Counted from the stretch's first letter, positions 50,205-50,404 are shown. The stretch: DNA of 64,000 nucleotides from Escherichia coli (GCF_003334355.1 NZ_QOWP01000002.1), one strand, 5' to 3'. Notes: generated from the letters alone by a model not told the origin. A program made the numbers and translations.

Positions 50205-50404
50205 GTAGGCCAGATAAGACGCGTTAGTGTCTTATCTGGCATTTGCACCGATTGCCGGATGCGGCGTAAACGCCTTATCCGGCCTACGATTCCCATTATT
50301 TCAACAAATTACATTAAAGTAGGCCAGATAAGACGCGTCAGCGTCGCATCTGGCATTTGCACTGAATGCCGGATGCGGCGTAAACGCCTTATCCGTCCTA
50401 CGAA
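50205..50404. repeat. Two tandem REP/BIME units between convergent rcsB and rcsC
   Basis: gtaggccagataagacgcg...cttatctggcatttgcac + gccggatgcggcgtaaacgccttatccggcctacg, repeated once with minor changes. Confidence 0.8.

Follow-up and report, generated by a model that had tools for sequence, protein, structure and literature searches.

The element analysed here belongs to the BIME-2 family, which, in the Gilson/Bachellier classification as restated by Ton-Hoang (2012; PMC3333891), combines Z2 REPs with inversely oriented Y REPs across a short head-to-head spacer. Reports that strains differ in BIME copy number go back to the 1990s (cited in PMC3333891). At the RNA level, Rho-dependent transcripts have been found to end just past stable hairpins that lack U-tracts, and such hairpins, REPs being named among them, shield the RNA from PNPase and RNase II (Dar and Sorek, 2018; PMC6061677). 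In hairpin-type bidirectional terminators the 3′ ends of convergent transcripts overlap around a stable hairpin, and a collision model has been proposed for these by the authors of that work, who call the class Rho-independent. A recent preprint (Harris, 2026; bioRxiv 10.64898/2026.03.23.713779) places 78 REPs within bidirectional terminators and reports that one BIME-2 array, REP325, terminates transcription in a partly Rho-dependent manner and stabilises the mRNA upstream of it. Table S16 of the preprint, which draws on 306 bidirectional terminators from a published list, labels two hairpin overlaps as REP162, 'Convergent', at rcsB:rcsD:rcsC.

The original prediction for the stretch of Escherichia coli DNA studied here (64,000 nucleotides, called the window throughout, with positions counted from its first letter) had been that two REP/BIME units occupy the convergent rcsB–rcsC junction and that the last palindrome runs into the rcsC stop codon. 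Both flanking genes were assigned by profile search, with NF008098 and NF008099 equivalog scores far over the cut-offs. The 199-bp gap between them (50199–50397), bounded by the rcsB stop TAA at 50196–50198 and the rcsC stop TAG at 50398–50400 (CTA on the plus strand), is nearly all repeat. Its layout is identical to that in E. coli K-12 MG1655: the segment 50150–50450 aligns ungapped with MG1655 2316779–2317079 (window position = MG1655 position − 2266629), with a single base difference that falls within rcsC and none inside the gap. The array, with its two BIME-2-type units in tandem, is the same element as the K-12 REP162 and as such is already catalogued; a literature search on REPs at rcsB–rcsC brought up only an unrelated CRISPRi paper, and one on REP162 in main texts returned nothing relevant. 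Three mechanically called ORFs (50259–50420 on the plus strand, 50301–50432 and 50309–50509 on the minus strand) were rejected as genes, being unsupported and made up of REP sequence.

Table 1. Coordinates of features at the rcsB–rcsC junction (window positions; where two folding energies are given, they refer to the plus and minus strands respectively).
Feature	Position	Strand	Remarks
rcsB CDS	49548–50198	+	NCBIfam NF008098 RcsB, 467 bits; start per MG1655 annotation b2217
Convergent 3′-end overlap at unit 1 Z2	50203–50245		Table S16 row 182, MG1655 2316832–2316874; log and stationary phase
Z2 REP, unit 1	50205–50240	+	GTAG foot; −25.3 (+) and −20.3 (−) kcal/mol
Head-to-head spacer, unit 1	50241–50253		13 nt, ATTTGCACCGATT; inside full-length Rfam naRNA4 match
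Y REP, unit 1	50254–50287	−	Inverted, ends CTAC; 0 mismatches to Y consensus; −21.3 / −20.9 kcal/mol
Tail-to-tail linker	50288–50318		31 nt; first 15 nt GATTCCCATTATTTC, remainder A+T-rich; register from direct repeat
Convergent 3′-end overlap at unit 2 Z2	50313–50356		Table S16 row 183, MG1655 2316942–2316985; stationary phase
Z2 REP, unit 2	50319–50354	+	Canonical, with bubble; 0 mismatches to Z2 pattern; −21.9 / −21.4 kcal/mol
Head-to-head spacer, unit 2	50355–50367		13 nt, ATTTGCACTGAAT; inside full-length naRNA4 match
Y REP, unit 2	50368–50401	−	1 mismatch to Y consensus; −14.8 / −14.4 kcal/mol, z about −2.7
rcsC CDS	50398–53247	−	NCBIfam NF008099 RcsC, 1841 bits; C-terminus ...RVRKSRDS
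C-rich, G-poor plus-strand RNA (candidate Rho loading region)	50402–50550	+	Antisense to rcsC; C/G = 1.79, exceeding the window's 95th percentile

The array (50205–50401) consists of two tandem 114-bp units, in each of which 13 nt of spacer separate a Z2 REP from an inverted Y REP (Table 1). A repeat search recovered, besides the internal palindromes, a 98-nt direct repeat (50205–50302 versus 50319–50416, 89% identity, spacing 114), and Tandem Repeats Finder run on the array gave a period of 114, 1.9 copies and 88% matches. The four palindromes, each of 34–36 nt, have GTAG at 50205 and 50319 and CTAC at 50284–50287 and 50398–50401, and show 0–1 mismatches to the Y pattern and 0–2 to the Z2 pattern, the search patterns being consensus sequences that agree with how PMC3333891 describes the family and with the Rfam match detailed below. 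Since 0 such matches were expected from 100 shuffles, and since folding of the 231-nt region gives z = −9.6 on the plus strand and −6.5 on the minus strand, the array is not a chance arrangement. The direct repeat, the Y and Z2 patterns and the naRNA4 matches thus all uphold the presence of two REP/BIME units at the junction. The predicted contact with rcsC was also found, in that the stop codon is supplied by the CTAC tail of the unit 2 Y REP, the overlap comprising CTA only; this REP is weakened through a G-to-T change in its foot.

The mismatch bubble in the stem of a REP is required for binding by TnpA-REP. It is present in the unit 1 Y, unit 2 Z2 and unit 2 Y REPs and absent from the unit 1 Z2 REP, where in the K-12-type allele (50205–50240) a change of GC to TT gives a perfect 14-bp stem. 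In a Y REP, a GC-to-TT change abolished both binding and cleavage by TnpA-REP (Ton-Hoang, 2012; PMC3333891).

The direct repeat extends 15 nt beyond the last REP, to 50416, and so takes in the last five rcsC codons. Correspondingly, the first 15 nt of the linker between the units (GATTCCCATTATTTC) agree in 12 of 15 positions with the 3′ end of rcsC at 50402–50416 (GATTCCCGCGATTTC in most strains). Because the start of the linker resembles the rcsC 3′ end in this way, the array would appear to have arisen by an old duplication that carried the end of rcsC along. A simple tandem duplication is insufficient to account for it, given that the 16 A+T-rich bases at 50303–50318 match neither flank (5 of 16 positions against 50189–50204, counted by eye, and no similarity to 50417–50432).

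The 13-nt spacers are of the short (S) type and not the long L linker with an IHF site. Both units match Rfam RF02564 (naRNA4) over its full length (model positions 1–77 of 77) on the minus strand, with 80.4 and 77.5 bits against a gathering threshold of 59.5, and the plus-strand scores, 58.9 and 56.5, fall slightly under it. The RF02564 model is built on a BIME-2 unit, and the whole Z2-S-Y arrangement aligns to it end to end. Weak Rfam microRNA matches in the array lie far under threshold and were set aside as hairpin artefacts. The sequence is extragenic and repeated, a 401-nt query that includes it having a median of at least 28 places per genome. Elsewhere in the window, ecotin (eco, 37452–37961, plus strand) and malate:quinone oxidoreductase (mqo, 38452–40098, minus strand) converge on a gap filled by a larger tandem BIME array (37968–38407; 3.9 units, period 113, 96% identity), which corresponds to the K-12 REP161 region. 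Within 17766–17864, a single Y-like REP with three mismatches is found on the minus strand at 17831–17864, and about 40 nt before it lies an A-tract/hairpin/T-tract resembling an intrinsic terminator (aaaaaaccccgctccggcggggtttttt).

Published maps place RNA 3′ ends of both genes within the element, as had been anticipated. In the Term-seq data of Adams (2021; PMC7815308), a minus-strand 3′ end at MG1655 2316833, equivalent to window position 50204, is listed twice in the three-condition table, scoring 40047 and 29672. Coming from rcsC, this position is one base beyond the foot of the outermost Z2 hairpin. Rows 182 and 183 of Table S16 add a convergent overlap of 3′ ends at each of the two Z2 REPs (Table 1); at unit 1 these maps put the rcsC (minus-strand) end at 50203/50204 and the rcsB (plus-strand) end at about 50245. 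Because Adams (2021) has no curated plus-strand 3′ end in the gap, the rcsB ends derive from one dataset.

A simple terminator scan of 49900–50700 found 0 sites with a hairpin followed by a T-run on either strand, and an intrinsic terminator was consequently rejected. Published bicyclomycin data (Adams, 2021; PMC7815308) instead define a Rho region on the plus strand at 2317179, or window 50550, with a score of 22 and p = 1e-49, where coverage goes from 274 to 14 without bicyclomycin and from 246 to 276 with the drug. A second, weak region on the minus strand at 2316687, window 50058, has a score of 2.6. These scores are calculated over 800-nt windows and are coarse for placing the release site. 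Rho-independence, as described for hairpin-type bidirectional terminators, is thus not what the bicyclomycin data show for the plus strand of the array, although the extra plus-strand reads seen with the drug could come from de-repressed antisense starts instead of read-through. The plus-strand RNA just past the array is rich in C and poor in G (Table 1) and may be where Rho loads on rcsB read-through transcripts, while on the minus-strand side C/G is 0.85–0.97, with no C bias. The Rho regions at 50058 and 50550 fall inside rcsB and rcsC respectively, both antisense, which means that failure of Rho would send the read-through of each gene antisense into its partner.

From these observations, we consider it probable that the array is a shared hairpin block by which the rcsB and rcsC mRNAs have their 3′ ends set and shielded, with the rcsB end produced by Rho release followed by trimming. 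Occupying the entire gap between the converging rcsDB and rcsC transcription units, the array would be transcribed from both sides and act mainly at the RNA level, as a common 3′ UTR in which the Z2 hairpins, strong and without a U-tract, would mark the steady-state ends of the rcsB and rcsC mRNAs. In rcsB transcription, polymerase most likely passes through the array, Rho would load on the C-rich RNA just past it and release the polymerase, and 3′-to-5′ exonucleases (PNPase, RNase II) would afterwards shorten the transcript as far as a Z2 hairpin. Transcripts of rcsC would end at the same hairpins with a weaker dependence on Rho, and here hairpin-induced pausing and head-on polymerase collisions may contribute. 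The rcsB data are in keeping with such a model, as put forward by Peters et al. and by Dar and Sorek (PMC6061677).

The reading of the array as a shared hairpin block builds on data for its anatomy and family, for the published 3′ ends and Rho-sensitive regions and for variation among strains; from these we infer the order of events, downstream termination and then trimming, and any benefit for rcsB or rcsC expression. It is favoured by the Z2 hairpins, which have folding energies of −18 to −25 kcal/mol in 15 of 15 E. coli alleles, and by the retention of the two-unit array in E. albertii. Against it, genes with terminal REPs do not have longer mRNA half-lives genome-wide (Harris, 2026). Moreover, the second unit must be dispensable, since about 18% of E. 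coli have one unit and other genera have arrived at unrelated solutions, as described below.

Copy number had been expected to vary among strains, and a cross-strain comparison confirmed that it does. The survey covered 5,426 complete E. coli genomes, from which a sample was taken evenly down the ranking of all. Within this even sample, 32 chromosomal matches span 401 bp and seven span 287 bp, a difference of exactly one 114-bp unit. A 37-nt linker query, which detects this locus only, was present in 4,437 of the 5,426 genomes (81.8%), at 4,472 places and at most three times in any genome, indicating at least two units in approximately 82% and one in approximately 18%. By this reckoning, one unit would be carried by about 18% of genomes and two by about 81%, and three or four may occur in under 1%, a figure based on linker counts only. 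With a junction that differs among strains and with transcript ends inside its elements, the original prediction stands on both counts.

The four one-unit alleles that were read all differ from one another, and each matches parts of a different two-unit allele. In addition, the RcsC protein of the one-unit strain 9 has the same accession as those of ST131 MB1341 and WP5-S18, which have two units, and one RcsC accession is common to AST262 (one unit) and 04A19CPO007 (two units). The distinctness of the one-unit alleles, together with the RcsC accessions common to one- and two-unit strains, points to recurrent and recent 114-bp deletions through recombination between the units. Strains likewise differ in where the two forms of the Z2 REP occur, the perfect-stem ('TT') and the bubble ('GC') version being found in unit 1, in unit 2, in both or in neither (loci L003 and L125–L132), with some strains carrying the bubble in the unit 1 Z2 REP. 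Because the two forms shuffle between units across strains, gene conversion between the units is suggested.

Such polymorphism in both number and sequence is what might be expected if the array were a tolerated selfish repeat, spread and amplified by TnpA-REP (RAYT) and harmless at a convergent junction, the RNA ends being a by-product. TnpA-REP does cleave and recombine BIMEs in vitro, and the number of BIMEs at a given locus varies among strains (PMC3333891). We regard this explanation as possible without thinking it the likely one, and comparison with other species provides evidence on both of its sides. Scanning species-representative genomes with a degenerate rcsB pattern yielded 120 loci, from which 109 rcsB–rcsC gaps could be measured, with a median of 70 nt and a range of 32–697. 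E. albertii carries the same two-unit array and linker over the 197 nt compared, and the two-unit array hence predates the split between E. coli and E. albertii, an age that argues against a selfish repeat. Four other Escherichia genomes have gaps of 146–154 nt with the same linker and internal deletions, as a selfish repeat would allow, and all four keep the CCTAC context of the rcsC stop. In three of them (E. whittamii, Escherichia sp. E1V33 and strain E69) little is left of the Y REP on the rcsC side, with the Z2 REPs staying strong.

Outside Escherichia the junction is built differently, again in agreement with a selfish repeat. S. enterica arizonae and several Citrobacter have differently arranged tail-to-tail REP pairs, unrelated to the array, and 56 of the 109 enterobacterial gaps are of 70 nt or less. 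Many other genera have a gap of only 32–65 nt, and some of these short gaps hold a plain bidirectional intrinsic terminator, with a single hairpin, an A-tract and a T-tract. In four such loci from Citrobacter and Lelliottia, the terminator stem (GCCTGATGG...CATCAGGC) resembles a REP arm, which hints that REP-like hairpins and bidirectional intrinsic terminators may interconvert at the rcsB–rcsC junction. Unusually long gaps, presumably due to insertions, are those of Leclercia adecarboxylata (697 nt, against the median of 70) and of two further loci (324 and 273 nt). An assembly titled Chryseobacterium sp. 18061 (Bacteroidota; CACSKA010000001.1) was also found to contain an enterobacterial rcsB–rcsC junction, with an RcsC C-terminus 94% identical to that of E. 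coli, and is probably contaminated or mislabelled. Speaking against a selfish repeat, besides its age, are the Z2 hairpins, which have kept their strength in all alleles examined as the Y REPs decayed, and the fact that both mRNAs end at these hairpins; moreover, a selfish origin is compatible with a shared hairpin block, as it concerns where the array came from and not its present effect.

The decay of the Y REPs bears on another account, a brake on translation, in which ribosomes would stall at a REP next to the stop codon, the mRNA would be cut and tmRNA would come to the rescue, leaving less RcsB and RcsC. Where a REP lies less than 16 nt from a stop codon, ribosomes are reported to stall and translation to fall (Liang, Rudd and Deutscher, 2015, in the description given by PMC12306157). 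A REP within 15 nt of the upstream stop is found for both rcsB and rcsC. The end of the rcsB stop (50198) is separated from the first GTAG by a 6-nt gap and from the Z2 stem, which starts at 50209, by 10 nt, and the rcsC stop lies directly against the Y stem. The Y REP at the rcsC stop is weak in 15 of 15 E. coli alleles, with −4 to −15 kcal/mol compared with about −21 for an intact, canonical Y REP, and it is the one largely deleted in the three Escherichia species noted above. A strong hairpin at the rcsC stop may have been selected against, but neutral decay explains the weak Y REP equally well, the 15 alleles being few and not phylogenetically independent, and we consider a translation brake unlikely.

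A role at the DNA level, with BIME-2 elements serving as gyrase binding and cleavage sites that clear positive supercoils between the converging units, seems to us quite improbable. BIME-2 elements are reported to be gyrase targets, by Yang and Ames in 1988 and by Espeli and Boccard in 1997, and placement between converging genes fits such a role. A supercoiling role is left possible by Harris (2026), but the same preprint found no long-range chromosomal role of REPs and a predominance of local transcript effects. It is highly improbable, in our estimation, that the distance from REP to stop and the number of units have been selected to set RcsB and RcsC levels, in which case the Y REP would have been repeatedly weakened or deleted as a staller of ribosomes, and one- and two-unit alleles would differ in rcsB and rcsC mRNA stability or protein ratios and thereby in envelope-stress and capsule set-points. 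Finally, that the array is a source of naRNA4-like nucleoid RNAs, with units cut from the rcsC 3′ UTR acting with HU to compact the chromosome, is extremely improbable: it has in its favour the full-length RF02564 matches on the rcsC strand and the high-scoring Term-seq end at 2316833 on the minus strand, which implies that a stable REP-ended RNA accumulates, but the Rfam model in effect picks up any Z2-S-Y BIME-2 unit, and Harris (2026) reported moderate HU–naRNA4 affinity with no stable ternary complex and no effect of REP325/naRNA4 deletion or over-expression on nucleoid size.

Returning to the shared hairpin block as the preferred reading, the literature already covers the element, its family, how it varies among strains and the RNA ends that its hairpins carry, and beyond this confirmation the finding of REP162 matters little. 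What is added here is the count of alleles over 5,426 genomes, the evidence for repeated 114-bp deletions, an age for the array greater than the E. albertii split and the contrast between Z2 hairpins that stay strong and a Y REP at the rcsC stop that decays. Whether the array tunes the stoichiometry of the Rcs phosphorelay is a matter of speculation; if alleles did change RcsB or RcsC dosage, they would represent a natural, non-coding tuning of an envelope-stress phosphorelay.

Set against the known systems, the array shares with the BIME-2 family the inverse orientation of Z2 and Y REPs, the short head-to-head spacer, the tandem copies and the strain-variable number. It differs in having a locus-specific linker that begins with a diverged rcsC 3′ end, apparently in place of a recognisable s, l or r motif, and in the unit 1 Z2 REP of the K-12-type allele, which lacks the stem bubble. 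With REP325/naRNA4 (yjdM–yjdN) it has in common the same Z2-S-Y unit, as judged from the full-length RF02564 match. REP325, however, comprises 12 hairpins, processed to six two-hairpin units, between tandem genes of one operon, whereas REP162 consists of two units between converging genes, receives transcription from either side and is in contact with the stop codons of both genes. Like the hairpin-type bidirectional terminators (SEnd-seq; ynaJ–uspE model), it has overlapping convergent 3′ ends around a stable hairpin with few flanking A/U, but two such sites are present here in tandem, and the plus strand is strongly sensitive to bicyclomycin, in contrast to a class described as Rho-independent. 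The canonical bidirectional intrinsic terminators of Citrobacter sp. FP75, C. sedlakii and Lelliottia occupy the same junction and presumably perform the same task of ending both transcripts, which they would do with a single hairpin, an A-tract and a T-tract in gaps of 48–51 nt, where REP162 has four hairpins without T-tracts in a gap of 199 nt.
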